Shown here: piece after piece, positions 13,615 to 42,754 of the stretch | How the letters are laid out: every line of letters begins with the position of its first letter | Position numbering within the stretch: position 1 is the stretch's first letter | NCBI GenBank assembly: GCA_965237955.1 | Contig: OZ250169.1 | Location: 448,001-512,000 of the forward strand | DNA: 64,000 nucleotides | Source: Candidatus Marinacidobacterales bacterium | Lineage (GTDB): Bacteria > Acidobacteriota > Vicinamibacteria > Marinacidobacterales > SMYC01 | Direction: 5' to 3' | Notes under the pieces: model-generated | Seen by the model: only the letters and a program-made list of their open reading frames with translations | Databases searched by the model: none | Told to the model about the DNA's origin: nothing | Position numbers and translations under genes: made by a program

Positions 13615-13890
13615 AATTTCGGAAGCACCGGTTTTCGTCTCTAATCTCGATTTTCGAGTGCCACGTTCGCGCCAAAGGGGGGAGCGGGCCGCTGACAGGG
13701 CCGTGCAGCGTCGGAAAAGAAGCCATCCGGGAGGCCCAGAATCGAGCTCGGGGCTACCGCGGCGTAGCTGGCCTAGCCCGTTCTGGTCCAGGTGCGGCCC
13801 TGGCCTTATTGATATCCATCTTTCCCCAGGACCTGGGTCCAAATCTTCGCCCGGGAGCGTGACATCCCGTTTCTGGACGTTGTTTCCCTG
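13615..13890 (+). repeat. Partial third copy of the non-coding module at 18490-19165 / 35297-35995
   Basis: Shared TCTCTAATCTCGATTTTCGAGTGCCACGTT...GTTCTGGTCCAGGTG...TTTCCCTG. Confidence 0.8.
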
Positions 13891-14091
13891 AGCACTTGAA
13901 GGAGGACAAGGTATTGATCGAAAGGTGGCGGCAAGAGTTCAATCGCTTCAGACCCCACAGCTCGTTAGGTTACCGACCGCAGCGCCGGAAACGATTCGGT
14001 TGAAACCGGCTCCGCTCCGCCGGCTTCAACCAGCCATTGTCAGCACCGAATGACTGAGATACAACGTGGTGCTAACCGTGGGGTCAGGTCA
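13890..14091 (+). pseudogene. 3' remnant of an IS3-family element
   Basis: KVLIERWRQEFNRFRPHSSLGYRP followed by terminal ...GGGGTCAGGTCA. Confidence 0.75.
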
Positions 14092-14120: not shown

Positions 14121-14338
14121 GTGAAACCCAGAGAATCCCTGAAAGAGAACACTTCCGGCGTGTTAAGACTCTTCGTCTACGGCACGCTCAAGCGCGGGTA
14201 CTGGAACCACGACCCCTTCTGCCGAGGCGTGCTGGCGATCCAGGAGGCCCAAGTTCGGGGCCGCCTCTTCGAAGGGCCCGGCTTCCCCGTTCTTGAGGTG
14301 CCCGACGAGGACATCCTCGCTCACGGAACTGGAGACCC
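14121..14338 (+). pseudogene. Gamma-glutamylcyclotransferase (AIG2-like), 3'-truncated
   Basis: RLFVYGTLKRGYWNH signature; GGAGGA RBS; cut at the intron boundary. Confidence 0.8.
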
Positions 14339-14486
14339 TTCGCGGTAGGGACCGCCCTTACGGGCGGCCCCCCGCACAGATCCCAGCGAGCGCTCCTAAC
14401 GCACTGGGCTCCTACCTCAGGTCATGACGCGCAGTCGCTGTTCGGGATACGGGTGCAGTGTTCGATGCTCGACGACTTTCATCAGC

Positions 14487-14645
14487 TGCGTATTCCGGGG
14501 CATCGTGAACGCAGATTCCAGCCGAAGGTGAACATCCATTCCAAAGCATCGTGAACACGGATTCCGGGGATCGTGAACACGGATTCCGGGGAAGGTGAAC
14601 ACGGATTCCAGGCAACGTGAACGCCGGTTCCGGCATCGCGAACGC
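14487..14645 (+). repeat. IS21 left-end tandem transposase-binding repeats (about 7 x 22-23 bp)
   Basis: Repeated ATTCC-N5-7-GTGAAC units; inverted copies at about 17355-17429. Confidence 0.85.
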
Positions 14646-14706
14646 TCATCGATAGCACGTTTCAAGGCAACTCTAGGTCGTACCCGGAAGGAGGACGATC
14701 TAGGAA

Positions 14707-16263
14707 ATGGCAGCTAAGAGGTTATCGATGAGAAAAATACGAGAGGTTCTAAGGTTAAAGTACGAGCTGGGTTTTACTCACCGCATGATCGCAAAGGCAC
14801 TTCGCGTGGCGGTTGGAACGGTGAGTGAGTACCTGGCCAAGGCGAAGAAGGGTGGTCTGAGCTGGCCGCTCCCGGAGGAGCTGAGCGAAGGGGAGCTGGA
14901 GGCAGGGCTGTTTCCGCCGCCGGGCTCGTCTGGCGCACGGCCGGGTCTGGACTATGCCCACATCCACGAGGAGCTGAGGCGTCACCGAGAGCTGACGTTG
15001 CTGCAGCTGTGGGTGGAGTACGCGGAGAATAAGCCGGGAGCGTACGGCTACAGCCGTTATTGCGAGCTGTACGGTCAGTGGAAGAAGAAGCTGAACCCGA
15101 CGATGCGTCAACGGCATCGAGCAGGCGAGAAGACATTCGTCGATTTTTCGGGGAAGAAGCCTCACATCGTCGATCCGAAAACGGGAGAGCTCGTCGAAAT
15201 GGAGCTGTTCGTCGGGACGTTGGGCGCGAGCAGTTACACCTACGTCGAAGCGACACTGAACCAGTCGCTGGAATCGTGGGCGAAGGCCCATAAGGGGATG
15301 TCGGATTACTTCGGTGGCAGTACGGAGATCTGGGTTCCGGACAACTTGAAGAGCGGCGTGGATTTGGTGGACCGTTACGAGCCAGGGATCAACCGGACGT
15401 ACGAAGAGCTGGCGACGCATTACGGTGCGGTTGTGGTCCCGGCTCGGGTGTTCAAGCCGAAAGACAAAGCGAAGGTGGAGTCGGCAGTGCAGGTGGCGCA
15501 GCGCTGGATCCTGGCGGTGCTTCGTCATCGCACGTTCTTCAGCCTGGCGGAACTGAACGAAGCCATCTGGGAGAAGTTAGAGGTCCTGAATGCGCGTCCG
15601 ATGCAGAAGCTCGGTGTGAGTCGGCGGGAGTTGTACGAAAGGCTAGACCGGCCCGTACTGAAACCGCTACCGCAGGAGAGCTACGAGTTATCGACGTGGA
15701 AGCGGTGCAGAGTGAACATCGACTACCACGTGGAGGTGGAGAACAACTTGTACAGCGTTCCCTATCAGCTCATTCACGAGAAAGTCGAGGCACGGGTGAC
15801 GGCCTCGGTGGTGGAGGTCCTGTTCAAGGGAAAGCGCGTCGCGTCGCATCCCCGCAAGAAAGGAAAGGGGCACTACTCCACGAACCCGGAGCATATGCCA
15901 CGTTCGCATCGGGAGCACCTGGAGTGGACGCCGTCGCGGCTGCTCCACTGGGCGGAGCAGTCAGGTCGCGCCACGGGAAGGCTGGTTGCGGGGATTCTAG
16001 AGAGTCGGCCTCACCCGGAGCAGGGATTTCGCTCTTGCCTGGGAGTCATGCGACTAGGCAGCCGCTGGGGCAGTGAGCGTCTCGAGGCCGCTTGCGCACG
16101 AGCGGAAGCTTTGAGCTCTTACAGCTATCGCACGGTGAAAAACATTCTCTCGGCTGGTCTGGATCGTGTGGTGCTCGAATCGGACGCCGAAGCGAAACCG
16201 CGAGAGGAGCACGAGAACATCCGAGGCGCGGATCACTACGAAGGAGGAGAGTCCCGATGCTGA
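14707..16263 (+). CDS. istA: IS21 transposase IstA
   Basis: MRKIREVLRL HTH, FVDFSG, VPDNLKSG, KPKDKAKVE. Confidence 0.95.
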   Translation: MAAKRLSMRKIREVLRLKYELGFTHRMIAKALRVAVGTVSEYLAKAKKGGLSWPLPEELSEGELEAGLFPPPGSSGARPGLDYAHIHEELRRHRELTLLQLWVEYAENKPGAYGYSRYCELYGQWKKKLNPTMRQRHRAGEKTFVDFSGKKPHIVDPKTGELVEMELFVGTLGASSYTYVEATLNQSLESWAKAHKGMSDYFGGSTEIWVPDNLKSGVDLVDRYEPGINRTYEELATHYGAVVVPARVFKPKDKAKVESAVQVAQRWILAVLRHRTFFSLAELNEAIWEKLEVLNARPMQKLGVSRRELYERLDRPVLKPLPQESYELSTWKRCRVNIDYHVEVENNLYSVPYQLIHEKVEARVTASVVEVLFKGKRVASHPRKKGKGHYSTNPEHMPRSHREHLEWTPSRLLHWAEQSGRATGRLVAGILESRPHPEQGFRSCLGVMRLGSRWGSERLEAACARAEALSSYSYRTVKNILSAGLDRVVLESDAEAKPREEHENIRGADHYEGGESRC

Positions 16264-17015
16264 CACCCGAAACGATAGAAAAGATGAACGCCATGAAGTT
16301 GTTCGGCTTGGTGTCCGCGTTCGAAACCCAGTTGAGCTCGAGCGAATACAAGGAGCTGAGCTTCGAGGAACGTGTGGGACTCCTGGTCGATGCCGAGTGG
16401 ACCGCCCGCGAACAGCGTAAGCTTTCTCGACGACTGCGAGCGGCAAAGCTCCGCTATCCGGCATGTTTGGAGAACGTGAACTTCCAAGCGCCTCGAGGCT
16501 TAAACCGCGAACAGATCTTGAGCCTGGGCAACTGCCGCTTTGTCGGTGAGCGCCATAACCTGCTCATCACCGGCCCGACGGGGATTGGCAAATCGTTCTT
16601 GGCTTGCGCCTTCGTGGAGCGGGCCTGTCGTCGCGGCTTCACCGGATGCTACGTGCGAGCACCGCGCTTGCTCCACGAGCTCGCGGTCGCTCGTGGTGAT
16701 GGTTCCTACGCCCGGCTTTTGACGAAACTCGCCAAGCTGGACTTACTGGCTATCGATGATTGGCTGCTTCACCCGCTGAAAGAATCGGAGAGACGGGATC
16801 TAATGGAGGTCATCGAAGACCGCGCCGAGCGTGGCTCCACACTCATCGCGACCCAGATTCCGCTCAAGCAGTGGCACGAAGCGATTGGCGACCCAAACCA
16901 GGCAGACGCTATCTGCGATCGCATTCTCCACAGCGCGCACCGCATCACTCTCAAAGGAGCTTCTCTGAGAAAGACCAAGGCTGCGCCAAAGGCATTTGAC
17001 AACGCCGATGCATGA
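16257..17015 (+). CDS. istB: IS21 helper ATPase IstB
   Basis: GPTGIGKS Walker A, LLAIDDW, ADAICDRI; ATG overlaps the end of istA. Confidence 0.95.
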   Translation: MLTPETIEKMNAMKLFGLVSAFETQLSSSEYKELSFEERVGLLVDAEWTAREQRKLSRRLRAAKLRYPACLENVNFQAPRGLNREQILSLGNCRFVGERHNLLITGPTGIGKSFLACAFVERACRRGFTGCYVRAPRLLHELAVARGDGSYARLLTKLAKLDLLAIDDWLLHPLKESERRDLMEVIEDRAERGSTLIATQIPLKQWHEAIGDPNQADAICDRILHSAHRITLKGASLRKTKAAPKAFDNADA

Positions 17016-18168
17016 GCGAGCGAGGGACCACAGCGTCGATGCGATAAAAACGGGTGAAACCGCCAAACCCGGGGTACCAGACGATGCGGCGCCAAAACGA
17101 CGCGCGAGAATGCCTCAGGAAGCGTCTTCTCGAGCCAGGCCATACCCCAGCAACCCCCCGAAACCAGCCCCACATCGCCCGGGGTTCGGCCGCGGCAGGT
17201 CGCTGCCTACGGGAGCGGGAAGGTCGCTTCGCGTCTTTCCTTACGCCCGCTCCCTCCGGCACCGACCTGCCGCCCCTTGCTACACAACACGCAGGTAAGA
17301 TAGGTTCACGTTTTCAATCAGTGGAAAGGAGGTCACCCAACACTTCATCGCTTCGATGAGCGTTCGGCTTCACCGGATTCGCTGTTCAGCTTGCTCTGGA
17401 TTCGGCGTTCACGATGGCTGGAATACGCAATCAGCCATCCGTGGTCGATGGCATCGAAGAATCCACGGATGTCCGCGTCGAGTATCCAGTTCACTTTCTT
17501 GTGAACCGTGCTCCCTTATCCCGGCAGGCTACCTGCCGTATCCGCTCCAGCGCATTTCGCAGATCAGGGGACCGAACGTAGGCGCACTCCCTTGGCTGTT
17601 TCCGCGCTTTCCCGCTTCGTGCCCGTTTAGGGTTGTCCATATTCACTCCCTGCCCGGCGCTGAGTCCGGGACCTGATTTGCCGCAGCGGATTTCCCTTGG
17701 TCAGTCCCCTTCGCTCCACCTCCTCCGCGGAGTGAGGTACTCCCCAGTCTTTGTTCGAAGGCTTCTCGGCTACTATGGGCCTGTCAGACTTCCCGCACCC
17801 GTTCGTCGCTGTCGTGCTCCTTGCGGATTCACAGCGCGGACCCCGACGCCACTCTGGGCCAAATGCGGGACCTCCCGGCTCCCGTGTATGTCTCTTCCGT
17901 GCGTGCGCGGGGTCTCAGACCACGCAGGGGCGGAACAACTCTTGCGATGACGACTTGTTCCGTGTTGCCTTCCGTGCCATACGACGCCGTCGGCCCCCCA
18001 AACTCAATTTTCCTTTCGCGGCTCAATACCCAGCCCACACGTTGCCCTGTCAACGCTTCGCCCCTGCCCTCGCGGACAGCAACGCATGACTCGGGGCCAA
18101 CTTGGTTCGCTACTCCTTGGTTAGGCGGGACTTGCACCCGCGAGACTTACCGGTTTGTGCCGGCGCAC

Positions 18169-18360
18169 CGTGAGGTCAAAATACTCATGCGGCTTCCCGA
18201 TGGTAGAAACGGAGCAACCCGCGAAGCCGTTCACGGGAGCACACCGTAGGCTCGGACTGATGTAACGGGTCGCTGGCTGGGAACAGCAGCAGATTCCTCA
18301 TCCGCTCGCACATGGACGTCCTCACGGCGACAGATTTCTTCACCACGGAAGTGTCGACTC
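18169..18360 (-). pseudogene. 3' terminus of an rve element (subfamily C) plus an internal fragment
   Basis: GLLRFYHREAA-stop followed by GTATTTTGACCTCACG; same sequence without the intron at 35035-35258. Confidence 0.75.
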
Positions 18361-18489
18361 AGGGCGGGTTTGCGAGGAGGAGACCCGAACCGTTCTCGTG
18401 GAGATGGTGCGTCGGGAGCGAGGCCGTATGGTGCAAATAGTACGTCGAGCTCGACGTCGGTCTAGTTTTCGGGGAGCAGGTCAGCTCGA

Positions 18490-19165
18490 ATGGAACCGCC
18501 TCACGCGCTGCTCGTGACATTTCCCTGTTCTTCCAGAACAATTCCCTGTTCGCCTATTTCAAATTCCCTGTTTGGTCATTTCAAATTCCCTGTTCTTTTG
18601 GAACAGGGAATTGCCACCTAACCATTTGAAATACAGATAGTTACCAGTGAAAAAACGGCCCGATCAGCCTCAAAATGGCCCAAATTCCCTGTTTTTCCCT
18701 GTTATTCATGGTTTTCAGCCGAGACCGGATAGCTCCAAACTGCCCCATCCGCCACCCAGTCTGGCCAATTGTGGCACTGCAGAGACGGGTGAGATTTTCC
18801 GCGCGGTTGGCGGGGTTTTGCAGGGGTAGGTGTCACCAGAGACGGCGCTAGAAGAGCCGAACTGGCCTCATTTTCGGTATTCGTCTCTAATCTCTATTTT
18901 CGAGTGCCACGTTTGCGCCAAAGGGAGGAGCGGGCGCTGACCGGGGGCCGTGCGGCAGCGGAAAAGAGGCCACCCGAGAGGCCCAGAATCGAGACCGGGG
19001 CTATCCGCGGCGTAGCGGGCTAGCACGTTCTGGTCCAGGTGCGGCCCGGGCCTGGATCCAGGTCTCCGCCCGGAAGCGTGGCATCCCGTTGCTGGATGGT
19101 GTTTTCCCTGCGCGTACGGGGAACCCGAATCGCCGACATCGCCTCCGACACGCCCCAGATCTGGG
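18490..19165 (+). repeat. ~0.7-kb non-coding module with phased (A)ATTCCCTGTT repeats, copy 1
   Basis: Units at about 18519, 18540, 18562, 18584, inverted at 18602, further units at about 18683 and 18695; homologous to 35297-35995. Confidence 0.85.
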
Positions 19166-22647: not shown

Positions 22648-24720
22648 TCATGCCCGAAGGTCATCGAGGAACTCCGATGCCGGGGCAACGCTCGTGACGA
22701 GCAGATGATCCCTGGCCCGCGTGCAGGCAACGTAGAGCAAATGACGCTCCGTGTCATACACCTCTTGCAGATCGGCGTCGTCGCCCACCGTTTCGATCCG
22801 TTTCTGCAAGGGGATGATTTCATCATCGCAGGCCATCACGACGACGGCGCGAAACTCCAGGCCCTTCGCTAGGTGCATGGTGCTGATGCAGACGTAACCA
22901 CTGGTGGTTTCGACATTCTCGTCCAAAATCTTGAACGGGAATCCAGAAAGCTGCACAGCCGAACGCACACGGTCCAGTTCTGCGGCGGATCGCACGAAGA
23001 CACCACACTCGTGGGGTGCGACACCGTCCTTCGCACGTCCTGAGACCCACTGGCCAACGTGTTCAACTTCTTCTTCCTGGCTGCTCAGAACTCGAATCTC
23101 CGGCACCGGCCCATTGAAGACGGAGACGGTGTGGCGTCGCTCCTCCCTGTTGCCATCGGCATCGGACACCTCGGGACCGAGCAGTCGGTCCGCCTGCGCC
23201 CGGATCTGATGTGACGTACGGTAATTGACCCGCAGCGTCTTCGACCGTCCCCGAATATCCACGCCCAAGGCCAGCCACGAGAACGGCTGCTGGAAGATGC
23301 GCTGGCCGAGGTCGCCAGCGAAGAAGAGCGCGTCAGGCCGATGCCGGCCGAGCCCCGCGAAGAACCGGAGATGGGCCACGCCGATATCTTGCGACTCATC
23401 GACCACGGCGAAGTCAAACGGCGGGTTCCTACTTTCCGCAACGGCTGCCGCCAGCTTCGTGAACATCGCTGAGCGCGTGATCATGTGCCGTGCCGCGAGG
23501 CCCACGCGAACCTGCTCGAACATCGACCAGAGGATCGCCCGCTGGGCTTCTGGGAGCCGTGTTTTTCTGCCGAGGCGCGCGACATCTCTATACACCTCCC
23601 AGGTGTCCAACTGCCACGCATCAACGACCTGCTCCCACTCGCTCAGCAAGAATCGCTCACTGAACTTGTGGTTCTCTCCACGTTCGCTGGCGGCCAGCAA
23701 CAACTCGTGAATGACCTCTGGAGGCGCCAGAGTGATCTGCCCGAAGTGGGACTTGTATAGGCGCTCTCCGGTAGCGTTGATCGAATGGACTTCCAGTCGC
23801 TCCGCCAGGCGCGGTTCGTTGCTGATGAGTCGCCTGAGTTGCGTGCGGAGGGCATTCGCCAGCATGTGCGAGAACGTCGTCAGTAAAACGCGCGCATTCT
23901 GGTTGGCGCGGGCCAGGAAGACGGCGCGATGCAGCGCCACCATCGTCTTCCCCGTGCCGGCGGAGCCAGAAACCCTTGCGGGCCCTGTGTAGCGCCGTTC
24001 AACCAGCTGCCGCTGCTCGGGATGGAGGAACACCGACCACTTGTCCCACGGGAACTCCAGAGCGCGCTGAAGTTCCTCGACGTTGCTCATCACGCGGAAT
24101 CGGCGTTGCGCGTCGGGATGATCAAACGGATTCATAACCGGTGCGACCGGCTGAAGCGGAAGTGGCCTGCCGCCAGTAGCCAGCTCCAAGAGCGCCTCGG
24201 CGGCCTCGCCCGGTAGTCGGTCGGCCAGCGAGAGGAGACTGTCCTCATCGACTTGGCGCACGTCTGGCAACCACTCCGGCGGCACGCCGTAGGTCAGCAA
24301 GTCGTCATCGGACATGTCCGCAAACAGCGGTAGCTTGGCTGTCGCTGGCTTCGGAGCCTCCACATACGTCGGGATGAGGATCTCTTGAACATTTTCCCGA
24401 ATCTCCACGAGCTGGGCGGCACCCGTTTTGGGGTGCGTCTCCAGTCGGCGCCGTTCCGCCCAGTCATACGCCTTGTCGTGATGGCCGACATAGCAGAGCA
24501 GGAGGCTCGTCTCACTCTTGTGCACGATCAGCCGGATGTCGCCACTAACCCGCACCGACCAGAAGTTCTTGTCCCTGGCCTTGTTGAGCTTGTGGAAGCT
24601 CATGCCGGGATTGGCGGGGTTGAGCTGCAAGTCGAACGCCGTTGTCTTGATGGCCTTTTGCTCCTTGCTCGTTAATCTGGCGAGACTATCTGTGAAGGTG
24701 TCGGCGATGCGGAAGTCCAT
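22648..24720 (-). CDS. UvrD-like SF1 helicase with N-terminal RelE/ParE-like domain
   Basis: GSAGTGKT, VVDESQD, NYRT, HLAKGLEF, LLYVACTRAR; N-terminal WSVRVSGDIRLIV...YVGHHDKAY resembles the RelE fold. Confidence 0.88.
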   Translation of the reverse strand: MDFRIADTFTDSLARLTSKEQKAIKTTAFDLQLNPANPGMSFHKLNKARDKNFWSVRVSGDIRLIVHKSETSLLLCYVGHHDKAYDWAERRRLETHPKTGAAQLVEIRENVQEILIPTYVEAPKPATAKLPLFADMSDDDLLTYGVPPEWLPDVRQVDEDSLLSLADRLPGEAAEALLELATGGRPLPLQPVAPVMNPFDHPDAQRRFRVMSNVEELQRALEFPWDKWSVFLHPEQRQLVERRYTGPARVSGSAGTGKTMVALHRAVFLARANQNARVLLTTFSHMLANALRTQLRRLISNEPRLAERLEVHSINATGERLYKSHFGQITLAPPEVIHELLLAASERGENHKFSERFLLSEWEQVVDAWQLDTWEVYRDVARLGRKTRLPEAQRAILWSMFEQVRVGLAARHMITRSAMFTKLAAAVAESRNPPFDFAVVDESQDIGVAHLRFFAGLGRHRPDALFFAGDLGQRIFQQPFSWLALGVDIRGRSKTLRVNYRTSHQIRAQADRLLGPEVSDADGNREERRHTVSVFNGPVPEIRVLSSQEEEVEHVGQWVSGRAKDGVAPHECGVFVRSAAELDRVRSAVQLSGFPFKILDENVETTSGYVCISTMHLAKGLEFRAVVVMACDDEIIPLQKRIETVGDDADLQEVYDTERHLLYVACTRARDHLLVTSVAPASEFLDDLRA

Positions 24721-24727
24721 CGGGCGC

Positions 24728-27568
24728 TTAGACCTTGAACACCTTCATCACTTCATCGCCAAGGTGATTGATCACCTTCACGGCGATCCGCCCGGATTTT
24801 GGTTTTTCGAAGGGCCGGGAGATGTCACTGTGCAGCGTCTCCCAGGCTTCCCGGTTGATTTCGGCTTTGAGAGTAGATTTGAGGGCTTTGTAGGGGTCGT
24901 TGGCGCCGAGAAAGTAAGCGTGTCGGACGAAGAAGCTTTCCTCGTTGTAGTCGGTGTCAATGAACCAGCAGGCGATGCCGTCGGCACCGTCGCTACGGAC
25001 TTCCCCGGTGCTGGGGTCGAAAACATCGACGCCTTTCACCTTCACGCGTAGCTGGCCGTCCGGCTCCAGCAGGGGTTCAATGTCTGGCTCGCCGAAGATG
25101 ACGAAGAGGTTCCCTTTACCGGTATTCTTGAGGTCCTCGGCCATGTGCAGGTCCGCGTTCATGCGAGCTTTGAGCACAGGGATGCGTCCCAGCTTGCTGA
25201 ACTCCGTGGCGTGCGCCTCGTAGTTGAAGGCACAGGCGATCAGCACATCGAAGTCAGCATCGCCGGCTTCACGGGCAGCCGCGACGAGATCGGCGCGCTG
25301 GACGGTGCCGAACTCGGGGCCGATGAAGATGGCAGCCCGCTTCTCGGTCGTGCCCTCCAGATATCGGCCCTCGGCGCAGACCAGTTCTCCCGGCCACGGA
25401 ATCAGAGTGGTGAAGGTGATCCGGTCGTCCTTGTGTGCCTGCTGCACGCCGGCAGTCTTCAAGTTCTCCAGAGTCATCAGAGGAAAGGACTGCTTGGTGC
25501 CGATTGTGGGACTGTCCTCCCTGAAAGTGTCGATCAACTCATCATTCTCGTCCACGCCGAGGACACGGTGGGGGCTCAGGCTCTCGACCGTGAAAGGGCC
25601 AGCCACACGGACGGTCTTCTTGTTCTCGTAGGGCCTGTCGTAGAGATATTCAAACTCGGCCTTGGCGGCGATGGAGGCGTCGATCTCTTTCTGCCGGGCG
25701 ATGCGGGCTTGCCACCAGTCGGCGTGCAGCTTCTTCGTCGCGTCTGGCCAGTTGGCATCGGCCGCACGCGGAATCTCCCACTCTTGCCAGGTCTTCTTGA
25801 GCGCGGCGTTCAGCTTAGACCGCAGCGACTCCAGCGTCTCCTGCCATCGCTCCCATATGACGTCAATCTCGGCGTTGTTGGCAACTACCGAGGAGGTTAT
25901 GTGCGGTCGGCGCCGATAAACGAAACCCTGGCGAACATCGCTATGAGTGGGCGATTCAGATGGCGCCTTGCGAGTGATCTCAGCCTCTTTTTGCTGTCCC
26001 TCCGGACTGTCGGCAAGCAGGTAGTACGGGTAGCGTGCGCCCATGATCCGGGCGCGGGCGAGCGCCAGTGCGACTCGCGAGGTATCGATGGTGATCCAGC
26101 GGCGACCCCACTGTTCGGCGACGTAGGCGGTGGTGCCAGAACCGCAAGTCGGGTCGAGAACGAGGTCGCCGGGGTCGGATGCAAGTAGTAGACACCGTTC
26201 CACAACACGTTCATTGGTTTGCACGACGTAGACTTGATCTGGCGCGCCACCGAAACCATCCCACCAGTTCGATATTGGTTGCATTCCAAAGTCAGAGTAG
26301 TATCGGACAATTCGAATTTGCTCGCTGCCGACATAAATCCGACTTGCGAAATCCAATCTCCGCATCCCGGAGTATTCGTCAACGGCATCAATCGCGATAT
26401 GCTTCCAACAGTTTCCTCTGCTTAGTCCAGGATCAAAGTCACGACCACGAAAAGTGAACATGACGCTCTGATTCTTGCGAACCCCGCCAGAGGTAGAGTT
26501 TTCGGACGTAAACAACTTGTGCCCGCGTTCGCGCTCAAGGATCAGTGGCCTCACCTTCAGTAAACTACCAAACTCATCGCCCTTTGCTATCTCAGAAATT
26601 GATGTGTCCTCGCCCGAGGAAAGACGCACCATTCGGAAATCTCTAGCGATTTCCGACTCGTCCAAGAACTCCTCGAACAATTGTCGTGTTTTTGCCTTAG
26701 TTTTGTCCTGAAAGTGCCAAACGATGTAGTCGTTTACTGCTTCTGGGAACTGACCTTTTTGGCTGCCCTTCTTCTTGATTAGAAGAAGATCGCCAGCGTT
26801 CTCCTCTCCAAACACCTCATCCATCAACGCCCGGACGCGATGGACATTCTCATCCCCAATCTGCACGAAGATCGAGCCGCTCTCCGTCAGCAGGTCCCGC
26901 GCCACCGTCAGCCGATCGCGCAGGTACGTCAGATATGAGTGGATGCCGTCGCGCCAGGTGTCGCGGAAGGCTTTGACCTGCTCGGGTTCGCGGGTGATGT
27001 GATCGGTCTTGCCATCCTTGACGTCGCGGCTGGTCGTGGACCACTGGAAATTGGAGTTGAACTTGATGCCGTACGGTGGGTCTAGGTAGATGCACTGCAC
27101 CTTGCCGCGTAAGCCTTCGCGCTCGGCCAGACTGGCCATGACCTGGAGGGAGTCGCCAAGGATCATGCGATTGGACCAGTTCTGGTCGTGCTGATAGAAC
27201 TCAGTCCTATCCACGCCCTCGGGGATGCCGTTGAAGTCGGCGAAGAGGTTGCTCTGTGCTCCAGGGGCCGCCGCTTGTGCTTGTTTCGTCTGCCGAAGGA
27301 GATCGTCGACCAACACCTTCGGATGAACCTTTTCCTGAATGTAGAGCGGCGGGGCGTAGACAACTAGATCGCTCCAGTCCTGCTCATCCTTCCCACGCCA
27401 GATGAGCTGGGGGTCGAGATCGGTGTTCCGTGGATACTTCACCGGCCGTGACTTGGCATCGTCTGGTCGGAGCACGGACTGATGCTCGGCAGAAGGGATG
27501 TTCTTCCGCTTGGTCTCGTCGTGCGTGATCGTTTCTACGGTCTTGCGAGTGCTGCGCCTCTTGGCCAT
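24728..27568 (-). CDS. mod: Type III-like RM DNA methyltransferase, system 1
   Basis: IYLDPPYG before DPTCGSGTT (beta-class order), with a lower-GC variable region between them. Confidence 0.92.
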   Translation of the reverse strand: MAKRRSTRKTVETITHDETKRKNIPSAEHQSVLRPDDAKSRPVKYPRNTDLDPQLIWRGKDEQDWSDLVVYAPPLYIQEKVHPKVLVDDLLRQTKQAQAAAPGAQSNLFADFNGIPEGVDRTEFYQHDQNWSNRMILGDSLQVMASLAEREGLRGKVQCIYLDPPYGIKFNSNFQWSTTSRDVKDGKTDHITREPEQVKAFRDTWRDGIHSYLTYLRDRLTVARDLLTESGSIFVQIGDENVHRVRALMDEVFGEENAGDLLLIKKKGSQKGQFPEAVNDYIVWHFQDKTKAKTRQLFEEFLDESEIARDFRMVRLSSGEDTSISEIAKGDEFGSLLKVRPLILERERGHKLFTSENSTSGGVRKNQSVMFTFRGRDFDPGLSRGNCWKHIAIDAVDEYSGMRRLDFASRIYVGSEQIRIVRYYSDFGMQPISNWWDGFGGAPDQVYVVQTNERVVERCLLLASDPGDLVLDPTCGSGTTAYVAEQWGRRWITIDTSRVALALARARIMGARYPYYLLADSPEGQQKEAEITRKAPSESPTHSDVRQGFVYRRRPHITSSVVANNAEIDVIWERWQETLESLRSKLNAALKKTWQEWEIPRAADANWPDATKKLHADWWQARIARQKEIDASIAAKAEFEYLYDRPYENKKTVRVAGPFTVESLSPHRVLGVDENDELIDTFREDSPTIGTKQSFPLMTLENLKTAGVQQAHKDDRITFTTLIPWPGELVCAEGRYLEGTTEKRAAIFIGPEFGTVQRADLVAAAREAGDADFDVLIACAFNYEAHATEFSKLGRIPVLKARMNADLHMAEDLKNTGKGNLFVIFGEPDIEPLLEPDGQLRVKVKGVDVFDPSTGEVRSDGADGIACWFIDTDYNEESFFVRHAYFLGANDPYKALKSTLKAEINREAWETLHSDISRPFEKPKSGRIAVKVINHLGDEVMKVFKV

Positions 27569-27570
27569 AG

Positions 27571-30500
27571 CTAGCTGCCCTCAGTCATCGGACGTGCCGT
27601 CGCGGTGGCGATCATCTTGTCGAACTCGCCTCCGACCTTCGCCGCGAAGTCGGTTTCGATCTCGTAGACCTCAGTGAACTCGGCGAACGCCCAGCGTCCA
27701 TACGTCTTGAGGTTATTCACGCCGGGCACCCAGTAGGTATCCATCGTGGATTTCTTTTCCTTCGCGTCCTCGCGCCGGTAGCCCTTGATCTCGACGACCA
27801 AGTGCAGCAGATCGTCGGGGCCGTGGCCGTCGTCCACCAAGACGACGAAGTCGGGCAGATACTTCCGAACCTCGGAGCCATAACGATACGGCACTTCGAA
27901 GCCCAGGTTGTGGTTCTTCGTGTAGGCTACGACCTTCGGATGCGACTCGGCGACGCGGCAGAACTCAGCTTCCCAGTCGCTGTCAAGCACCACCCAGTTG
28001 ACATGGTTCTTGGGCGGTGGACCACTGGTGTCCCAGCGGTCCGCTCGGGACGTGTTGAATCTGACGTGGGCCGTGGAGCCGGTGGGATTGTAGGGGTCGA
28101 GCAAGGCTTTGATGGGGCGGTGGTCTTCCAGCGCGTTGGTGATGCCGGCGGTGATGCGGTTGCACGCCATGTCAGCCAGCTCCTGATACATCAGCTGGGC
28201 GGGATAAGTGCCGCCCTTGCAAACGAGACAGGTGTCGAGCCACTGCTTCGTGATGCGTTTGAGCTGACCGAACAGATAGAGCTTCGGCTCTTCCCCCGGG
28301 TCGCGCCATTTCGTGTAGAGCAGGCGCTGGGTGACGTGGAAGAGCAGCGTGGACGGCCGCATGTCGCCTAGATGCACCAAGTTCAGGTCCACGCTTTCGC
28401 CGATGATTCCCGAATCCTGTGTGATGGACGGGCCAACCAGATCGGGGCTGAGTTCGAGAATGGAATCGACGTTGAAGGTGGCCGTGAGGCGCTCCTCGGG
28501 CAGTTCGACGCGGTAGCCTTCGACACGAGGGAACTGGATTTCGAGGCCGTCTCGCTCCAGGCGCATGGCTTTGACTTGAACCGTCTCACGCGGCGGCTGC
28601 GGAGGCGCGATAACGGGCTTGGCCGTGAAGTCGAAGGGAACGCCGAAAATGTCTGCGTACTCGACGTTGAAGAGACTTTCGTCATTGAGGTCGTAGGATT
28701 GGCGGCGCAGCGCGCGTCCGATGACCTGTTCGCAGAGGAGCTGGGTGCCAAAAGCGCGAATTCCGAGGACATGGGTGACGGTGTTCGCATCCCAGCCTTC
28801 CGTCAGCATCGACACGGAGACGACACAGCGGATGGAGCCGCCGAGTTGGCCGTGCTTGCCCACGGTGTTCATGACCTCACGCAGCAACTCCTGATCGCTG
28901 ATGTTGTCCCCTGCACGGGCATCCCCGGTGCGCTCGATGATCTCGCGGCGGAAGCGTGCAATCTCATCGGCGGCCATGCCGCGAAACTTGTCATCGAGAG
29001 CATCACCAGCTTCCAGCTGCTCACTGTCGATCAGCAATGTGTTCGGACGCGCGAGCGGATTCCCCGTGGTTTCGTCGAAATTGCGGAAGAGGGCCAGGCG
29101 ACCGTTTTCGAGTGTGGTGGTCCCATCTTCGTTCTTCCGGTGAAAGCCGGAAACGAAGTCATAGACCAGCTTCGAGATCGAGGTGTTCTGGCAGACGATG
29201 ATGAAGCAGGGTGGCACACGAATGCCCCCTGCCTCCCACAGCGTGAAGGTCTTCTCGTAGTGCCCGTAGAGCGCCGCAAGCGCGGTTTGCAGTCGGGTGG
29301 GCAGTTTAAGTGGATCAAGCTCTCCGCCCTGGCCGCGCCCCTTCTTGGGCATCTTCTTGCGGATGTTTTCCCAGAGGTTGCGGTACACCGGCATCTCGTC
29401 ACCGGGAATGTTTTCCGCGACCGGGACGCGGGGCAGTTTAACGATGCCGCACTCGATGGCGTCCATCAGCGAGAAGTCGCTCATCGTCCACGGGAAGAGC
29501 GTGCCCTCGGCATAGCCGGACCCACGCAGGAAGAAGGGCGTGGCGGATAGGTCGATCACACGGGAGAGGCCGAGCTTACGACTCACGGCTTCGAGACCCG
29601 AGATCCAGAGGCGAGCCGCTTCATTGTTCTTTTCTGCCTCTTTTCTGTCATCGCCCCTCAGATGCTCATCGTCCGGCTCCGGTGGCTTCTCGCGGTAGCA
29701 ATGGTGCGCCTCGTCGTTGAGCACGAGGATGTTCTTGATGCCCATCAGATCAGGCATGACACGCTGGAGCATCTGCCCTTCGGTTTCGGTGGTGTTCAGC
29801 TCGTCGCCGGTGCGGCCCTTGAGCAACGCGCGTCCGCCGGCAGACAGCTCGATGCGCTCGCGTAACTTGAAGGCGTGGTAATTGATGATAACGATCTTGG
29901 CGCGGTTCACGTCATCGAGCAGGTCGTGCGGCACGAGTTCGCGGCTGGCGTAGTAACTGTCTGGGTCGTTCGGCTGGAGGACGCGGAGCCGATCCTTGAT
30001 GGTCAGGCCTGGGGCGACGACTAAGAAGCCTCGGGTGAAGGACTTGCTGCCGGGGCGGCGCACCGCATTGATGGTCTGCCACGCGATCAGCATGGCCATG
30101 ACAGTTGTCTTGCCGGCCCCGGTGGCCAGCTTCAGCGCGAAGCGCATCAGTTCGGGATTGGCGTCCTTGTTGGCTCTGGCCAAGTGGTTGAGCAACCGTT
30201 TACCGCCCTTGGATTGTGGCGCGACCTCGGTCAGCCAAATCGCGGTTTCGACGGCTTCCACCTGACAGAAGAACGGGCGGATGCTGCCGAACGGGTGGTG
30301 CCGCCAGTGCTGGAGCAGGCGCGCGGTTTCCGGGCTGACCTGCCACTGGTTGGGGTTGGGCCAGGCCCGCCATATATCCACGTTCTGACGCACTTCATTG
30401 ATGATGGAGGTCGGATCGTATTGTTGCTCCTTGGTGGAGAGACCTTTCCCCTCGTCGAACACTATCTCGGCTTGCTGTCGGTCCTTCCGCTTCTTCGGCT

Positions 30501-30645
30501 TTGGGATCGGCGTGATGAACTCGGCGCGTCGACGGCGGTCCAAGACCTGATGCGTCGGCTGTCCCTGGAAGTCCAGCTCCCAGTGCCGCTGTGGGCACTC
30601 GTAGGGTGAATTCAGGATGGGGTGATCGAAGAATGGGTTGGCCAT
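27571..30645 (-). CDS. res: Type III-like restriction helicase-nuclease (BPTD_3080-like), system 1
   Basis: KLATGAGKT, NDEAHH, LSATP, MLTEGWD, C-terminal PDF...VEIKG. Confidence 0.92.
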   Translation of the reverse strand: MANPFFDHPILNSPYECPQRHWELDFQGQPTHQVLDRRRRAEFITPIPKPKKRKDRQQAEIVFDEGKGLSTKEQQYDPTSIINEVRQNVDIWRAWPNPNQWQVSPETARLLQHWRHHPFGSIRPFFCQVEAVETAIWLTEVAPQSKGGKRLLNHLARANKDANPELMRFALKLATGAGKTTVMAMLIAWQTINAVRRPGSKSFTRGFLVVAPGLTIKDRLRVLQPNDPDSYYASRELVPHDLLDDVNRAKIVIINYHAFKLRERIELSAGGRALLKGRTGDELNTTETEGQMLQRVMPDLMGIKNILVLNDEAHHCYREKPPEPDDEHLRGDDRKEAEKNNEAARLWISGLEAVSRKLGLSRVIDLSATPFFLRGSGYAEGTLFPWTMSDFSLMDAIECGIVKLPRVPVAENIPGDEMPVYRNLWENIRKKMPKKGRGQGGELDPLKLPTRLQTALAALYGHYEKTFTLWEAGGIRVPPCFIIVCQNTSISKLVYDFVSGFHRKNEDGTTTLENGRLALFRNFDETTGNPLARPNTLLIDSEQLEAGDALDDKFRGMAADEIARFRREIIERTGDARAGDNISDQELLREVMNTVGKHGQLGGSIRCVVSVSMLTEGWDANTVTHVLGIRAFGTQLLCEQVIGRALRRQSYDLNDESLFNVEYADIFGVPFDFTAKPVIAPPQPPRETVQVKAMRLERDGLEIQFPRVEGYRVELPEERLTATFNVDSILELSPDLVGPSITQDSGIIGESVDLNLVHLGDMRPSTLLFHVTQRLLYTKWRDPGEEPKLYLFGQLKRITKQWLDTCLVCKGGTYPAQLMYQELADMACNRITAGITNALEDHRPIKALLDPYNPTGSTAHVRFNTSRADRWDTSGPPPKNHVNWVVLDSDWEAEFCRVAESHPKVVAYTKNHNLGFEVPYRYGSEVRKYLPDFVVLVDDGHGPDDLLHLVVEIKGYRREDAKEKKSTMDTYWVPGVNNLKTYGRWAFAEFTEVYEIETDFAAKVGGEFDKMIATATARPMTEGS

Positions 30646-32060: not shown

Positions 32061-33492
32061 CCCGTCCTGTGCCAAAACTCGGCCCTTTTGAAATAGGCCA
32101 TAAATCAGCAACTTAGTGTCTGTGTTTGCGACCGGGCCAAGGGCCGTGGGCTTTACAATCGTCTTGGGCGGGCGGGTCGTCACCATGCAGATGACCACCT
32201 AGTCGAGAGCGAATATCGAAGCATGTTCCTGAAGCTGTTTCCACGCTACGCCGGTCGAGCCCGCCGAGGGGCTACCGTCGCCGGCGACCATCTACGCGGC
32301 ACGGCAGTAGTAGTTGAGAATGCCCCCAAGTCGCTCTCGCGACACGATGAGGCCAGTGTCATTCGCGCTTGCCGGCAGAGGTGTGAGGAGCTCGTTGCCG
32401 AGACCTTGGTGGTTCCGTTCTGTGTGATAGTGCACTACGTATTCGGTTACCGCTGTGCGCAGGTGTCGCTCACTGAGAGGTACGAAGCGGTCGAGACACT
32501 CTCGACGTATGGAGAGAACGAATCTTTCCGCGTATGCGTTCAGATTCGGACTATTGGCGGGAAGGCGGAGGGGCTTCACGCCTGAATCTCTCAACAGCCC
32601 ACGTACCGCCTCGGTGAATAGTGGGTCTCGGTCGTGGATGAGGTATCGCTTGCCAAGGAGGAAACCATCCCACATGTCAGTGAGGTTTCTTGCCACCTGC
32701 TTCATCCACTCCCCGTTTGGGTCCGACGTTATCCCACCGATGCACACGCAGCGAGTGGCGATATCGATGACAAACAGGACATGGTAGCGGACGAGCCCGA
32801 ACGGGTTCACAACCTCGACGGTGAACAGGTCTGTCGCAGCGATGGCGCCCCAATGAGCCTTGATGAAGGTGCTCCACGACATGCTCTTGACCCGCTCCGG
32901 GGCAGGCGCGATACCTTGGTTGGCGAGGACCCTCTTGATGGTGTTGCGTCCGAGTTCATGTCCGAGGTTCTTGAGTACGCCCCGCAGGCGCGTATATCCC
33001 CACGTCGGGTTCTCCCGCGCCATGCGTACCATGAGCTCACGGATGTCCTTCGCCGTGGGAGGTCTGCCTGGGCTCCGGTTCTTGCTGCCATCGTACTTGG
33101 CTGCGATGAGGCAGCGGTACCAGCGTAGAAGCGTAGCGGGCGTGGCAACCGACGCAATCTGGGCCAGCGCCTCGCGGCCCAAAGCTTGGGCCTTGACCGC
33201 GAGCCTGCGCCGGTCGTCGTCCGAGAGACTGAGACGCTTGCCCCGAAGCCCGGCTCGGAGCACACGGTTCTCCTCTTGCTGGTAGTCGATCACATCCTGC
33301 TGCTGGCGGTTGACCCAGCCAGCTAGAACGAGCAGTAGGAATTGCACGTGGTACGTCATCATGGACCTGAAGATAACACCCTCGGGCCAGACGATTGTAA
33401 AGCCTACGGCCCTTGGCCCCGGCGCAAACACAGACACTAAGCTGCTGATTTATGGCCTATTTCAAGAGGGCCGAGTTTTGGCACAGGACGGG
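32061..33492 (-). mobile_element. rve-integrase element, subfamily A, copy 2
   Basis: Same length and TIRs as 588-2019, with scattered substitutions. Confidence 0.9.
32292..33362 (-). CDS. Integrase-core (rve) transposase
   Basis: Nearly identical to 819-1889. Confidence 0.9.
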
Positions 33493-34961: not shown

Positions 34962-36070
34962 CCCGTCGTGTCCAAAAATACAAACGAACTCAAGACCTGC
35001 ATCAGCCGAAGTCAGTCAAAGAGGAATGTCTCTCGAAGCTCATCCTGTTCGGCGAGAAGTCGCTCCGTCATGCGCTTAGGGAGTACGTCGTCTACCATCA
35101 CCACGTGAGGAATCATCAAGGCAACGAGAATCTGCTGCTGTTCCCAGCCAGCGACCCGTTACATCAGTCCGAGCGCAAGGTGCGCTCCCGTCAACGGCTT
35201 GGCGGGTTGCTCCGTTTCTACCATCGGGAAGCCGCATGAGTATTTTGACCTCACGGGGACTCTTTTGACCGGAGGGGCACACAACCATTCGTGTCCTCGA
35301 ATGGAACCGCTCACGTTCTGCTCGTGACATTTCCCTGTTCGCTCATCTCAATTCCCTGTTCGCCTATTTCAAATTCCCTGTTAGGTCATCTTAAATTCCC
35401 TGTTTTTTGGGAACAGGGAATTGCCATCTAACCATTTGAAATACAGATGGTTACCACGTGAAAAAACGGCCCGATCAGCCTCAAAATGGCCCAAATTCCC
35501 TGTTATTCATGGTTTCCAGCCGAGACCGGATAGCTCCAAACTGCCTCATCCGCCACCCAGTCCGGCCAATTGTGGCACTGCAGAGACGGGTGAGATTTTC
35601 CGCGCCGTTGGCGGGGTTTTCCAGGATCAGGTGCCACCAGAGACGCGCTAGAAGGCCTGAACAGGCCTCATTTTCGGTATGGGTCTCTAATCTCGATTTT
35701 CGAGTGCCACGTTTGCGCCAAATTGGGGAGAGGGCGCTGACCGGGCCATGCGGGTGGCGGGAAAAGAGGCCGCCCGAGAGGCTCAGAATCGAGGCCGGGG
35801 CTACTGCCGCGTAGCTGGCCTAGCACGTTCTGGTCCAGGTGTGGCCCTGGCCTCCTTAATGTCCATCTTTGCCCAGGACCTGGATCCAGGTCTTCGCCCA
35901 GGGAGCGTAGCATCCCGTTGCTGGACGGTGTTTTCCCTGCGCGTGCGGAGAACCCGAATCGCCGACATCGCCTCCGACACGCTCCTGATCTGGGGTTCGC
36001 CACAGGGTGATGACGATCGAAACGGCCCGGCGCGCCAGTCTTGAGTTCGTTTGTGTTTTTGGACAGGACG
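34962..36070. mobile_element. ~1.1-kb non-autonomous unit bounded by inverted subfamily-B termini
   Basis: CCCGTCGTGTCCAAAAATACAAACGAACTCAAGAC at 34962 and its inverse at 36038-36070; same pair at 47428 and 52197. Confidence 0.65.
35297..35995 (+). repeat. Non-coding ATTCCCTGTT module, copy 2
   Basis: Colinear with 18490-19165. Confidence 0.85.
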
Positions 36071-39748: not shown

Positions 39749-42700
39749 ATGAGCCAAGTTATCATCGAGAACCCGATCATCAACTCGCCTTTCGACGAGC
39801 CGACTCGCCATTTCAAGTTTACCGACGAGGGCATCACCGACGACATCGTCGACGGCCGCCGGAGCAGTTCGTATTTCGTACCCATCGCCAGGCCAAAGAA
39901 GAAGGGGTCCAAACAGCTTCAGTTCGACACGGAATGGACGCAGGACCGCATCGAAGAAAACAAGCTCGTCAACGATATCCGTCGCCGCGTCGAATTGTGG
40001 CGCAAGGGCGGCTACGTTGGCGTGACGCCGACTACCGCACGTTTGATTGCCTACTGGACCGATCCCAACCGCGAGAAGAAACTATTCTTCTGCCAGAACG
40101 AAGCCCTTGAAACCGCCATCTACATTGCCGAGGTGGCAAAGAAATACGGCGATGCATGGATAGAGAACGCGATACGCGAGGGAAACGACACATCGAACCC
40201 CGGACTGCCGCGCACGGCGTTCAAGATGGCAACCGGCTCAGGCAAGACCGTCGTCATGGCCATGCTCATCGCCTGGCACACTCTCAACAAGCGCGCCAAC
40301 CCGCAGGATGCCCGCTTCTCCGACACCTTTCTGATCGTCACGCCTGGCATCACCATCCGTGACCGGCTGCGCGTGCTGTTGCCGAACGACCCGGACAACT
40401 ACTATCGCCAGCGCGATATCGTACCGGCCCAACTGCAGGACCAGCTCGGACAAGCCAAAATCATCATCACCAACTACCACGCCTTCCAACTGCGCGAGAG
40501 AGTCTCCGCAGGCAAGATCACGAAGTCGATTCTCACCGATGGGCAGCCAAGCCCGTTCACCGAAACTCCCGACCAGATGGTGCGACGTGTCTGTCGCGAG
40601 TTGAGAGCCAAGAAGAGCATCATCGTCCTTAACGACGAAGCCCATCACTGCTACCGCCGCAAGCCCGACAGCGAGAATGAAAAACTCACCGGCGATGATC
40701 GCGTTGAAGCCAAGCAACGCGACCAAGAGGCTCGCGTCTGGATTTCCGGCCTAGAGGCCGTGAAGGCCAAGATCGGAGTGAAGGCCATTTACGATCTTTC
40801 AGCCACGCCGTTTTTTCTTCGCGGTTCGGGCTATCCCGAAGGCACACTTTTCCCTTGGGTGGTCTCGGATTTTTCGCTGATTGACGCCATCGAGGCCGGC
40901 ATCGTCAAAGTGCCCCGCGTGCCGGTGGCTGATGACTCGATGACAGGCGCGCAGCCCACCTACCGCGACCTGTGGCTCCGCATCCGCGAGCATCTACCAA
41001 AAAAGGGTCGCAAAACCCATAAGGTGGGGGGCGAACCAAAGCTTCCTGTCGAACTGCAAGGTGCGCTGCTCAGTCTCTACGGCAACTACGAGAAGTATTA
41101 CCGCCTGTGGGAGAAGAATACCGAGGCGCGCGCACGCGGTATCACGCCGCCGGTGTTCATCGTCGTCTGCAACAACACCAACGTCTCCAAGTTGGTCTTC
41201 GACTTTATTGCCGGATGGGAAAAGCAGATCGGCGAAGAGACCATCGTCCAGGCCGGGCAACTGCCCATCTTCCGCAACGACGACGGCAAAGGCGCCTGGC
41301 TACAGCGTCCGAACAGCGTCCTGGTGGACAGCCAGCAACTCGAATCCGGCGAATCAATGAGCAACGAATTCAAGAAGATCGCCGCCCGAGAAATCGAAGA
41401 ATTCAAGGCTGCATACCGATCACGCTTCCCGGGCCGGGATGTGGAAAATCTTACCGACGAAGACTTGCTCCGTGAGGTCATGAACACCGTGGGCAAGGCC
41501 GGCAAACTTGGCGAACACGTCAAGTGCGTGGTCAGCGTCTCCATGCTTACCGAGGGTTGGGATGCCAACACGGTCACCCATGTGCTGGGCGTGCGCGCCT
41601 TCGGAACGCAATTGCTATGCGAGCAGGTGGTCGGCCGCGGCCTGCGTCGGATGAGTTATGCCGCCGATGCGAAGGGACATTTCAGCCCTGAATACGCCGA
41701 AGTTTATGGTGTGCCGTTTTCTTTCATCCCGTGCAGCGGCGCAACCACAGATCCCAAACCCGGTCCCCTGCCCACTCGCGTTCGCGCCCTTGAAAGCCGC
41801 ATCGACTATGAGATTACCTTTCCCCGATTGCTCGGCTACCGCTACGACCTGGCCGATGAACCGTTGACCGCAAAGTTCACCGATGAATCCAGACTCGCCC
41901 TTTCCACTGCCGATATCCCGACCAAGACCGAGAACGCGCCCATCGTCGGCGAATCCAGCGTCCACACCCTCGACGATCTCAAATGCCGCCGGCCCAACGA
42001 AGTCGCCTTCCTTCTCGCCAAGCTCACGCTTGAAAAATACTTCCGCGACAACGACGGCAACGACAAGCCTTGGCTCTTCCCGCAATTGCTCGGCATTGCC
42101 AAACGCTGGCTCAATGAATGCGTCGCGCTCAAGGACAACACCTTTCCGCAACTGCTGCTGCTGATCGAGTTCGCGCACGACGCAGTGGACCGTATCTACA
42201 AGGCCATCGTAGCCTCGACGGACTCTACGGCTGCGCTCAAGCCCATCCTCCACCCGTATGATACTAGCGGCTCCACTCGTTATGTAGATTTCGATACAAC
42301 GCGGCCGGTCTTCGCGACCCGCGCCGACAAGTGCCACATCTCCCACGTCGTTGCCGATACCGACTCGTGGGAGCAGAAAATGGCCGAAGCCCTGGAAAAC
42401 ATGCCCGAGATCATCCGGTACGTCAAGAATCACAACCTCGGATTCACCATCCCCTACACGTTAAACGGCGAGGAAAGGAACTACATCCCCGACTTCATCA
42501 CCTGCATCGACGACGGTCGCGGCCCGGATGACCTCTTGAACCTGATCGTCGAAGTGACCGGCGAAAGGAAAAAAGACAAGGCAGCCAAGGTCACCACGGC
42601 GCGCGCATTGTGGGTTCCGGCTATCAACAATCACAGCGGTTTCGGTCGCTGGACGTTTATCGAAGTCGCCGACCCTTGGGATGCACAGAACCTCATCCGC

Positions 42701-42754
42701 GGCTTTCTGAGACAGCTACACGTAGAGCCAACAAAGGAAGTCGCACATGGCTAA
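39749..42754 (+). CDS. res: Type III-like restriction helicase-nuclease, system 2
   Basis: KMATGSGKT, NDEAHH, MLTEGWD, PDF...VEVTG; paralog of 27571-30645. Confidence 0.92.
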   Translation: MSQVIIENPIINSPFDEPTRHFKFTDEGITDDIVDGRRSSSYFVPIARPKKKGSKQLQFDTEWTQDRIEENKLVNDIRRRVELWRKGGYVGVTPTTARLIAYWTDPNREKKLFFCQNEALETAIYIAEVAKKYGDAWIENAIREGNDTSNPGLPRTAFKMATGSGKTVVMAMLIAWHTLNKRANPQDARFSDTFLIVTPGITIRDRLRVLLPNDPDNYYRQRDIVPAQLQDQLGQAKIIITNYHAFQLRERVSAGKITKSILTDGQPSPFTETPDQMVRRVCRELRAKKSIIVLNDEAHHCYRRKPDSENEKLTGDDRVEAKQRDQEARVWISGLEAVKAKIGVKAIYDLSATPFFLRGSGYPEGTLFPWVVSDFSLIDAIEAGIVKVPRVPVADDSMTGAQPTYRDLWLRIREHLPKKGRKTHKVGGEPKLPVELQGALLSLYGNYEKYYRLWEKNTEARARGITPPVFIVVCNNTNVSKLVFDFIAGWEKQIGEETIVQAGQLPIFRNDDGKGAWLQRPNSVLVDSQQLESGESMSNEFKKIAAREIEEFKAAYRSRFPGRDVENLTDEDLLREVMNTVGKAGKLGEHVKCVVSVSMLTEGWDANTVTHVLGVRAFGTQLLCEQVVGRGLRRMSYAADAKGHFSPEYAEVYGVPFSFIPCSGATTDPKPGPLPTRVRALESRIDYEITFPRLLGYRYDLADEPLTAKFTDESRLALSTADIPTKTENAPIVGESSVHTLDDLKCRRPNEVAFLLAKLTLEKYFRDNDGNDKPWLFPQLLGIAKRWLNECVALKDNTFPQLLLLIEFAHDAVDRIYKAIVASTDSTAALKPILHPYDTSGSTRYVDFDTTRPVFATRADKCHISHVVADTDSWEQKMAEALENMPEIIRYVKNHNLGFTIPYTLNGEERNYIPDFITCIDDGRGPDDLLNLIVEVTGERKKDKAAKVTTARALWVPAINNHSGFGRWTFIEVADPWDAQNLIRGFLRQLHVEPTKEVAHG

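Follow-up and report, generated by a model that had tools for sequence, protein, structure and literature searches.

A reverse-transcriptase-deleted group II intron at the junction between an insertion sequence end and host DNA in a Candidatus Marinacidobacterales genome

We analysed a 64,000-nucleotide stretch of a Candidatus Marinacidobacterales genome (contig OZ250169.1, positions 448,001 to 512,000; referred to as the window), which contains a group II intron with a deleted reverse transcriptase (RT) gene. The intron begins directly beyond the end of an rve-type insertion sequence (IS), on the seam between element and host DNA. Very probably, it is a non-autonomous IIB-type intron that inserts at this junction by reverse splicing guided by base pairing, with RT supplied by full-length copies. 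This reading is supported by copies at separate sites, by pairs of empty and filled alleles, by covariation of the exon-binding sites EBS1 and EBS3 with the target, and by head-to-tail stacks of introns in related genomes. Judged by its sequence, the window feature is a real group II intron with ordinary chemistry, and is unusual in its target, its 3’ end and its arrangement in relatives.

Results and discussion

A group II intron with a deleted RT gene

The intron occupies positions 14339 to 18168 on the minus strand, starting with GTGCG at 18168 and ending with CCGCGAA at 14339. Its first bases agree with the GUGYG 5’ end of IIB introns, and the 5’ junction, ...GAGTATTTTGACCTCACG|GTGCG, is the one given in a preliminary description of the stretch. 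Domain I (17910-18134, minus strand) matches the Rfam model RF02005 (group-II-D1D4-6), as in IIB-type introns, with 172.8 bits (E 2.8e-50, cut-off 49). Domain V (14379-14411, minus strand) was assigned from fold and sequence, and domain VI (14339-14378, minus strand) from its fold. Together they form a structure with a z-score of -4.5, the stability of which was equalled by none of 200 shuffled sequences. The domain I match and this fold bear out the earlier remark that both ribozyme ends are recognizable. Domain VI contains an unpaired A at 14346, eight bases before the intron end; the bulged A of domain VI is the branch point in IIB introns generally. A genome scan with RF00029 gave no copies of the window-intron family among the best 150 of 508 candidates.

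Alignment to full-length copies shows that the RT gene (remnant 14417-17640, minus strand) is reduced to its start, a short middle piece and the last codons, and is frameshifted. The two deletions named in the preliminary description, at RFT/RKVNW and EHR/LHPYP, measure about 380 and 746 nt relative to a 2006-nt copy. The remnant is interrupted by an IS21 element (14487-17429, plus strand; istA 14707-16263, istB 16257-17015) with a 6-bp duplication, ATCAGC, and contigs from three of four public runs are continuous across it. Subtraction of element and duplication (3830 - 2943 - 6) leaves an intron of 881 nt, where about 0.88 kb had been estimated. The 3’ exon is a broken gamma-glutamyl cyclotransferase-like gene (14121-14338, plus strand; PF06094, E 2e-06), which is uninterrupted in two copies in the source genome (G000:C1:521837 and 2398208). 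No contig from the public runs joins the two exons of the window intron; only contigs were searched, in which splicing is invisible.

A 99.7%-identical, IS-free copy (G000:C1:3640597-3639717) lies inside an IS21 gene of which the empty site occurs 45 times, and therefore fixes both intron ends without ambiguity. The 3’ end, reported earlier as ...CGAA in place of the canonical AY, is real: sequencing error or a mis-set boundary is ruled out by the 99.7%-identical copy and by the 35 of 38 units that share the end. The last base is A in these 35 units and G in the other three, G being able to wobble with U; none of the 38 units ends in AY, and one 5’-truncated copy ends in T. The change is accounted for by the gamma pair. 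The J2/3 segment reads UGA (17784-17786, minus strand), with gamma being the U at 17786 and its partner, predicted from covariation, the terminal A at 14339. Gamma and the last base form a Watson-Crick pair in all 19 parsed rows (G-C 13, A-U 3, U-A 3), the three U-A rows all coming from the window lineage. Since the gamma U matches the terminal A, the GAA end is a compensated change. A natural U-A gamma pair was not reported in the open-access literature that we searched, and boundary rules relying on a 3’ AY will mis-call introns that have one.

The intron begins where the insertion sequence ends

The rve element terminates at ...TTTTGACCnnACG. Its 13-bp terminal repeat (TTTTGACCTCACG; 18169-18181, minus strand) is both the 5’ exon and the target of the intron, and sequences flanking the repeat diverge past the final ACG. 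They do so as well at an intron-free end of the same type in the window (35243-35255, plus strand). The source genome holds 51 ends of the targeted type, three filled by an intron and 48 empty. At the empty ends ACG is followed by G in 32 cases, A in nine, C in six and T in one, and the flanks are unrelated. Because the flanks diverge right after ACG, the element ends there and the intron lies on its boundary. A position inside the terminal repeat is ruled out by the same divergence, so the earlier placement within the last few bases of the element does not hold. The intron-free end that had been noted at 35235-35258 is present, but the GGG that follows ACG at 35255 is host flank and lies outside the element. 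What had been called an rve transposon is a remnant in the window, consisting of a 128-bp right end (18169-18296) and a 73-bp internal piece (18298-18370), both on the minus strand and 91% and 96% identical, respectively, to locus L019.

An intact element of 1421 bp, found in genome G777, has 13-bp CGT...ACG repeats and encodes one 359-residue rve transposase. This protein contains an rve_3 domain and scores below the NCBIfam cut-off for IS481 (93.5 and 79.3 bits vs 224). IS481 elements are defined by TGT...ACA ends with a target duplication, unlike the CGT...ACG ends of the target element. Several sequence searches detected neither a target duplication nor an empty site of the rve element, and the source genome yielded no intact transposase of the targeted sub-family. 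Left and right ends are both used by the intron, with the element always supplying the 5’ exon. In contrast to the three filled ends among 51, the intron is absent from all 608 ends that belong to three abundant sister IS types in the genome, and this rules out a general preference for all rve ends.

Several features of this IS family were observed alongside. About 770 rve-type ends occur throughout the source genome, with CGT...ACG termini and a GG(A/G)TC flank bias (window examples at 32063-33490 and 34964-35255). Left and right flanks never rejoin into an empty site, no target duplication was found, and the family scores below both the IS481 and the IS3 cut-offs. A non-coding repeat of several hundred bases (window 13629-13893, 18485-19165 and 35296-35994), present in dozens of genome copies that are 75-90% identical, often adjoins the IS ends. 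At loci L268 (minus strand, just upstream of 3575), L332 and L336, this IS end also harbours, 16-17 bases in from its tip and in the opposite orientation, the 5’ end (GTGCGCCGTGC...) of an unrelated group II intron-like sequence, so that two intron families are found at one terminus.

Base pairing with the target

The CGTATGG loop that had been put forward as EBS1 (CGUAUGG, 17977-17983, minus strand, with delta U at 17984) occupies a slot whose pairing with the 5’ exon is borne out by 15 outside homologues: on average 5.7 of 6 positions pair with the homologue’s own exon and 2.3 of 6 when exons are crossed. These homologues came from a pool of 80 loci collected by RT similarity, in which EBS1 follows a fixed motif; the test set comprised introns with a distinct EBS1 and a GTGCG start, and loci without a parsable 5’ end were excluded. 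In none of the 15 does the 5’ exon resemble the element end. The window EBS1, read from 17983 to 17977, pairs at five of seven positions with the exon end CCTCACG, as had been noted, at six of seven with left ends, and at all seven with the off-target site in IS21.

EBS3 (17917, minus strand), the base after GGTC, covaries with the base that follows the intron. It is C in the full-length and 882-nt types and U in the 881-nt type. Within the window lineage, all 24 C-type units are followed by G, and U-type units by G in ten cases and A in four. The four A-flanked stacks or single copies all terminate in a U-type unit, C-type units always standing before G. An EBS1-IBS1 pairing of about 6 bp (IBS, intron-binding site) and an EBS3-IBS3 pair, as in IIB introns, are thus both present.

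A candidate EBS2, GAAAAUU (18006-18012, minus strand), faces the T-tract of the element end and pairs at four to seven of seven positions across eight clade sites; from sequence, an A-tract EBS2 opposite this T-tract is plausible. Class E and F introns can splice without EBS2 (PMC3753933). An additional EBS2a pair is described in IIB1 and IIB2 introns (PMC8643678), and by analogy such a pair may bear on the missing part of the target specificity. Founding copies of the 881-nt type lie at element ends in 12 of 13 cases.

Probable mobility in trans of the deleted form

The 99.7%-identical copy sits at an unrelated site, and hence the intron moved to a second site once its RT had been deleted. 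One intact RT frame of 465 residues is present in the source genome (G000:C1:3588681-3590078; TIGR04416, 376 bits, cut-off 300). RVT_1 is its sole Pfam domain, and it has no endonuclease domain. The other full-length genome copy is frameshifted at about codon 25. Judging by its C-terminal motif, the RT is putatively of class E. The same deletions recur at many separate sites, and together with the intact RT this makes it likely, on the sequence evidence, that the RT-deleted intron is mobilized in trans by a full-length RT. The preliminary description had raised this possibility, and both a candidate donor RT and further copies with the same deletions were found in the genome. Empty and filled alleles also occur as a pair within the source genome (841254 vs 7842006). 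Five short forms were seen (740, 750, 782, 881 and 882 nt), and shortening occurred more than once.

Separately, we observed two pairs of inward-facing intron 3’ remnants flanking the same 1.3-kb segment (G000:C1:2925513-2927060 and 7903193-7904804), each member of a pair being cut by the end of another element.

Stacked copies and related genomes

Of 60 related genomes, seven contained a match to the intron, with 90-100% identity in five; at most the best 12 candidates per genome were considered, and copies may be missed. Loci L008-L011 bear the title Candidatus Marinacidobacterales, and sponge metagenomes are among the public runs with the intron. We define a leading copy as one with an intact 5’ end and no intron directly ahead. 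Across six genomes, an element end precedes 21 of the 22 leading copies (G000 3/4, G001 11/11, G002 1/1, G016 3/3, G018 2/2, G026 1/1). When 12 sites were tested against G000, two gave empty and filled alleles with both flanks shared: the six-copy stack L109, which corresponds to an empty site at G000:2917928, and L114, which corresponds to eight empty sites.

Genome G001 contains at least 32 copies (best 40 of 46 candidates scored), with stacks of 12, 6, 4, 2 and 2 head-to-tail introns at single element ends. The largest is at G001:C1:7592734-7604437. Stacks of two or three occur in four genomes (G852, G768, G917 and G918) of a second lineage, genus g114. Within stacks, units of 881, 882 and about 2005 nt are mixed, the junctions are base-exact, and identical haplotypes are found at separate loci. 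In the 12-copy stack a derived base change is present in units 4-8, closer to the element than units 9-11. Because the intron’s own 3’ end is a poor partner for EBS1, new copies likely enter on the element side. The sequences suggest that stacks likely form since a filled site retains the IBS and presents a G to EBS3. A contig from an RNA library bridges a head-to-tail junction, with 108 and 48 bases on the two sides; it may derive from DNA, from a stack transcript or from a circle.

The window intron and two other lineages, at 76-80% RT identity, form a clade (FastTree support 0.984) in which EBS1 and target change together. The window lineage has CGTATG, and the other two have CGTGTG with CACACG and CGTAGG with CCTACG. 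In Rhodopirellula sp. SWK7 (76% RT identity) the intron has EBS1 CGTGTG, the exon TTTTTGACCACACG and a canonical GAC end. That of g114 (80% RT identity) has EBS1 CGTAGG and also a canonical GAC end; its copies were found by the EBS1 pattern alone, and eight of 14 canonical ends in the g114 genomes are filled. Searched at the DNA level, 401 genomes of the Rhodopirellula phylum yielded only G003 and a more distant intron. The EBS1 pattern had no match in 301 genomes of that phylum, a weak negative given that the known positive G003 was missed by one base. Scans with the 17-nt EBS1 pattern found no intron among the matches listed for metagenomes (119 stretches), and a viral scan gave five matches without an intron.

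Two observations concern relatives of the intron. A g114 intron lies in a short multicopy repeat (...TTTATCCCTGCG|GGAAGGCTCGG), at one position in three genomes (L273, L326, L327, L330, L331 and L334). Outside homologues at L074-L087 and L026-L027 start with GAGCG, AAGCG or ATGCG and include apparent nested or adjacent copies.

A model for insertion and its alternatives

We propose that read-through transcription carries the intron and that the full-length RT attaches to the start of domain IV, which the deleted form has kept. EBS1 would read CCnnRCG, the candidate EBS2 the T-tract, and EBS3 the first host base, so that all upstream contacts would fall within the last ~14 bases of the element. 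On insertion the element would stay intact, the G of the intron would take the place of the first host base, and the site would remain a target. Newcomers would then enter beside the element and displace older copies outward, giving rise to stacks. At the 3’ end, the gamma U would pair with the terminal A. The likely benefit to the intron is a self-renewing supply of harmless targets. Copy number would then not be capped by saturation of sites, a limit discussed in PMC3522654. The stacks allow insertion order, and competition between short and full-length introns, to be read from sequence. A natural mobile intron of only 881 nt that can enter its own site again is also a candidate for engineering repeated insertions at a specific site.

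A number of observations weigh against this model. The 21 of 22 leading copies come from related genomes in which the intron lineage hardly differs, which points to recent transfer; their counts are therefore not independent, and the figure reflects one lineage. The Rhodopirellula 5’ exon resembles an element end, yet no transposase adjoins it. In g114 only nine leading copies out of 29 adjoin an element end, and the other 20 lie at an IS110 site (six), in another repeat (six) or scattered (eight). All eight scattered copies are in G917, which lacks the canonical end and has one of 11 leading copies at an end. The 608 sister-family ends are all empty. At the window site EBS1 has two mismatches, and a site matching at all seven positions 256 bp away (window 18425) is empty. 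EBS2 is not validated: in a sliding test on the outside homologues the score was 4.87 with the own exon and 4.64 with crossed exons, which is not significant. When only pairing is modelled, targeted ends make up 55 of the 198 candidate sites of the 881-nt type, so that additional determinants, or selection, must contribute. The proposal that the lineage homes to rve termini is supported by the leading copies of six genomes, and is restricted to one end sub-family and to a minority of g114 leading copies.

It is possible, if doubtful, that the intron has no special tie to the IS and behaves like any sequence-specific IIB intron, element ends being merely the commonest match in genomes rich in such elements and insertions elsewhere having been purged. 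The mechanism is then the same as in our model, and the two differ on specialization alone. The 20 g114 copies at other matching sites are what such an intron predicts, as are the off-target sites in IS21 and IS110. An empirical 14-nt motif followed by G hits ends in 52 of 71 genome sites, although this count is circular, the motif having been derived from occupied sites. Against a purely incidental match, motif and cut coincide with the last base of the element in three lineages at 76-80% RT identity, EBS1 tracks the variants of the end, and g114 genomes fill eight of their 14 canonical ends. Stacks are unlikely to stem from duplication in place, unequal crossing-over or concatemers of cDNA copied from intron circles, as opposed to repeated homing. 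Runs of identical units exist (L108 units 4-7, L110 units 2-4), the recombinant 882-nt types show that recombination occurs, the RNA-library contig could derive from a circle, and circles are reported for one IIF intron (PMC3753933). Interleaving of the 881-, 882- and ~2005-nt units, recurrence of the same haplotypes at other loci, base-exact junctions and an EBS3 rule kept at every distal unit are difficult to reconcile with such an origin.

We also consider it improbable that retrohoming is coupled to DNA transposition, with the endonuclease-less intron priming from a nick or gap left by the transposase at the element end. The intron would, in this scheme, attack the same bond that the transposase is predicted to cut, and stacks would record, in order, the bursts of mobility at each end. 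The empty sister ends (0/608), the off-target sites, which need no transposase, and the lack of a detected intact transposase of the targeted sub-family in the source genome weigh against it. A reversed or joint order, in which the IS inserts ahead of introns or a composite carries the intron, is highly improbable. It would explain the many different 3’ flanks at filled sites and an IS family without detected target duplication, but is already contradicted by empty alleles that share end and host flank without the intron. Furthermore, EBS1 and EBS3 complement the junction, and the flank bias of the IS family is GG(A/G)TC, not GTGCG.

Relation to described introns

The closest parallel to the stacks is found in the IIB1 introns EcKTE56.groEL and Avi.groEL, where a second copy enters a filled site via EBS3 and the first G of the resident (PMC12584367). 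Copies are head-to-tail, as in the window-intron clade, and ORF-deleted forms (ORF, open reading frame) are mobilized by separately made RT, as is likely in that clade. The groEL introns target the stop codon of a housekeeping gene and reach two copies under laboratory over-expression (PMC12584367), whereas the clade of the window intron has up to 12 mixed units in genome assemblies. E.c.I4 and RmInt1 share site-specific homing to an IS, which is interpreted as a safe and renewable target (PMC3522654, PMC4238363). They insert within transposase genes (PMC3522654), in contrast to the window clade, which uses the outer boundary at both ends and leaves the element unbroken.

Trans mobilization of ORF-less introns has precedent (PMC2882425), although such introns are called rare in bacteria (PMC4424553). 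Those of Thermosynechococcus elongatus likewise use a related full-length RT and prefer mobile elements (PMC2882425); the lineages described here differ in having five short forms, a target that is kept and not diversified, and copies that stack. Twintrons of Methanosarcina acetivorans resemble the proposed stacking in their repeated homing at a perpetual site, with up to five introns, but are nested within one another (PMC4424553), while the stacks of the window clade are head-to-tail outside the IS.

The preliminary description likened the intron to attC-targeting IIC introns. The analogy is apt for the lifestyle, each lineage being bound to a site at which another mobile system recombines (PMC7923331), and fails for recognition. 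IIC-attC introns use a 3-4-bp EBS1, no EBS2 and a DNA hairpin upstream of the site (PMC7923331), and their target in attC is TTGT/T. The window intron has a 6-7-nt EBS1 that covaries, as EBS3 does, with a target CCnnRCG/G, and its targeting therefore looks sequence-based. We found no report of IS-boundary homing or of natural 12-copy stacks in the open-access literature that was searched. In that literature, IS-boundary homing and long natural stacks have no precedent, and trans mobilization and two-copy tandems do.

Additional genes and elements

The window further contains two type III restriction-modification-like gene pairs (res and methylase), at 22648-30645 (minus strand) and 39749-45392 (plus strand). 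After the former comes a UvrD-like helicase, and a NO VEIN-domain gene lies close by. A Cas3-like helicase with a C-terminal HD domain is encoded at 58048-60765, and an ALIL frameshift pseudoknot, typical of IS3-family elements, is located at 55389-55505 (minus strand).

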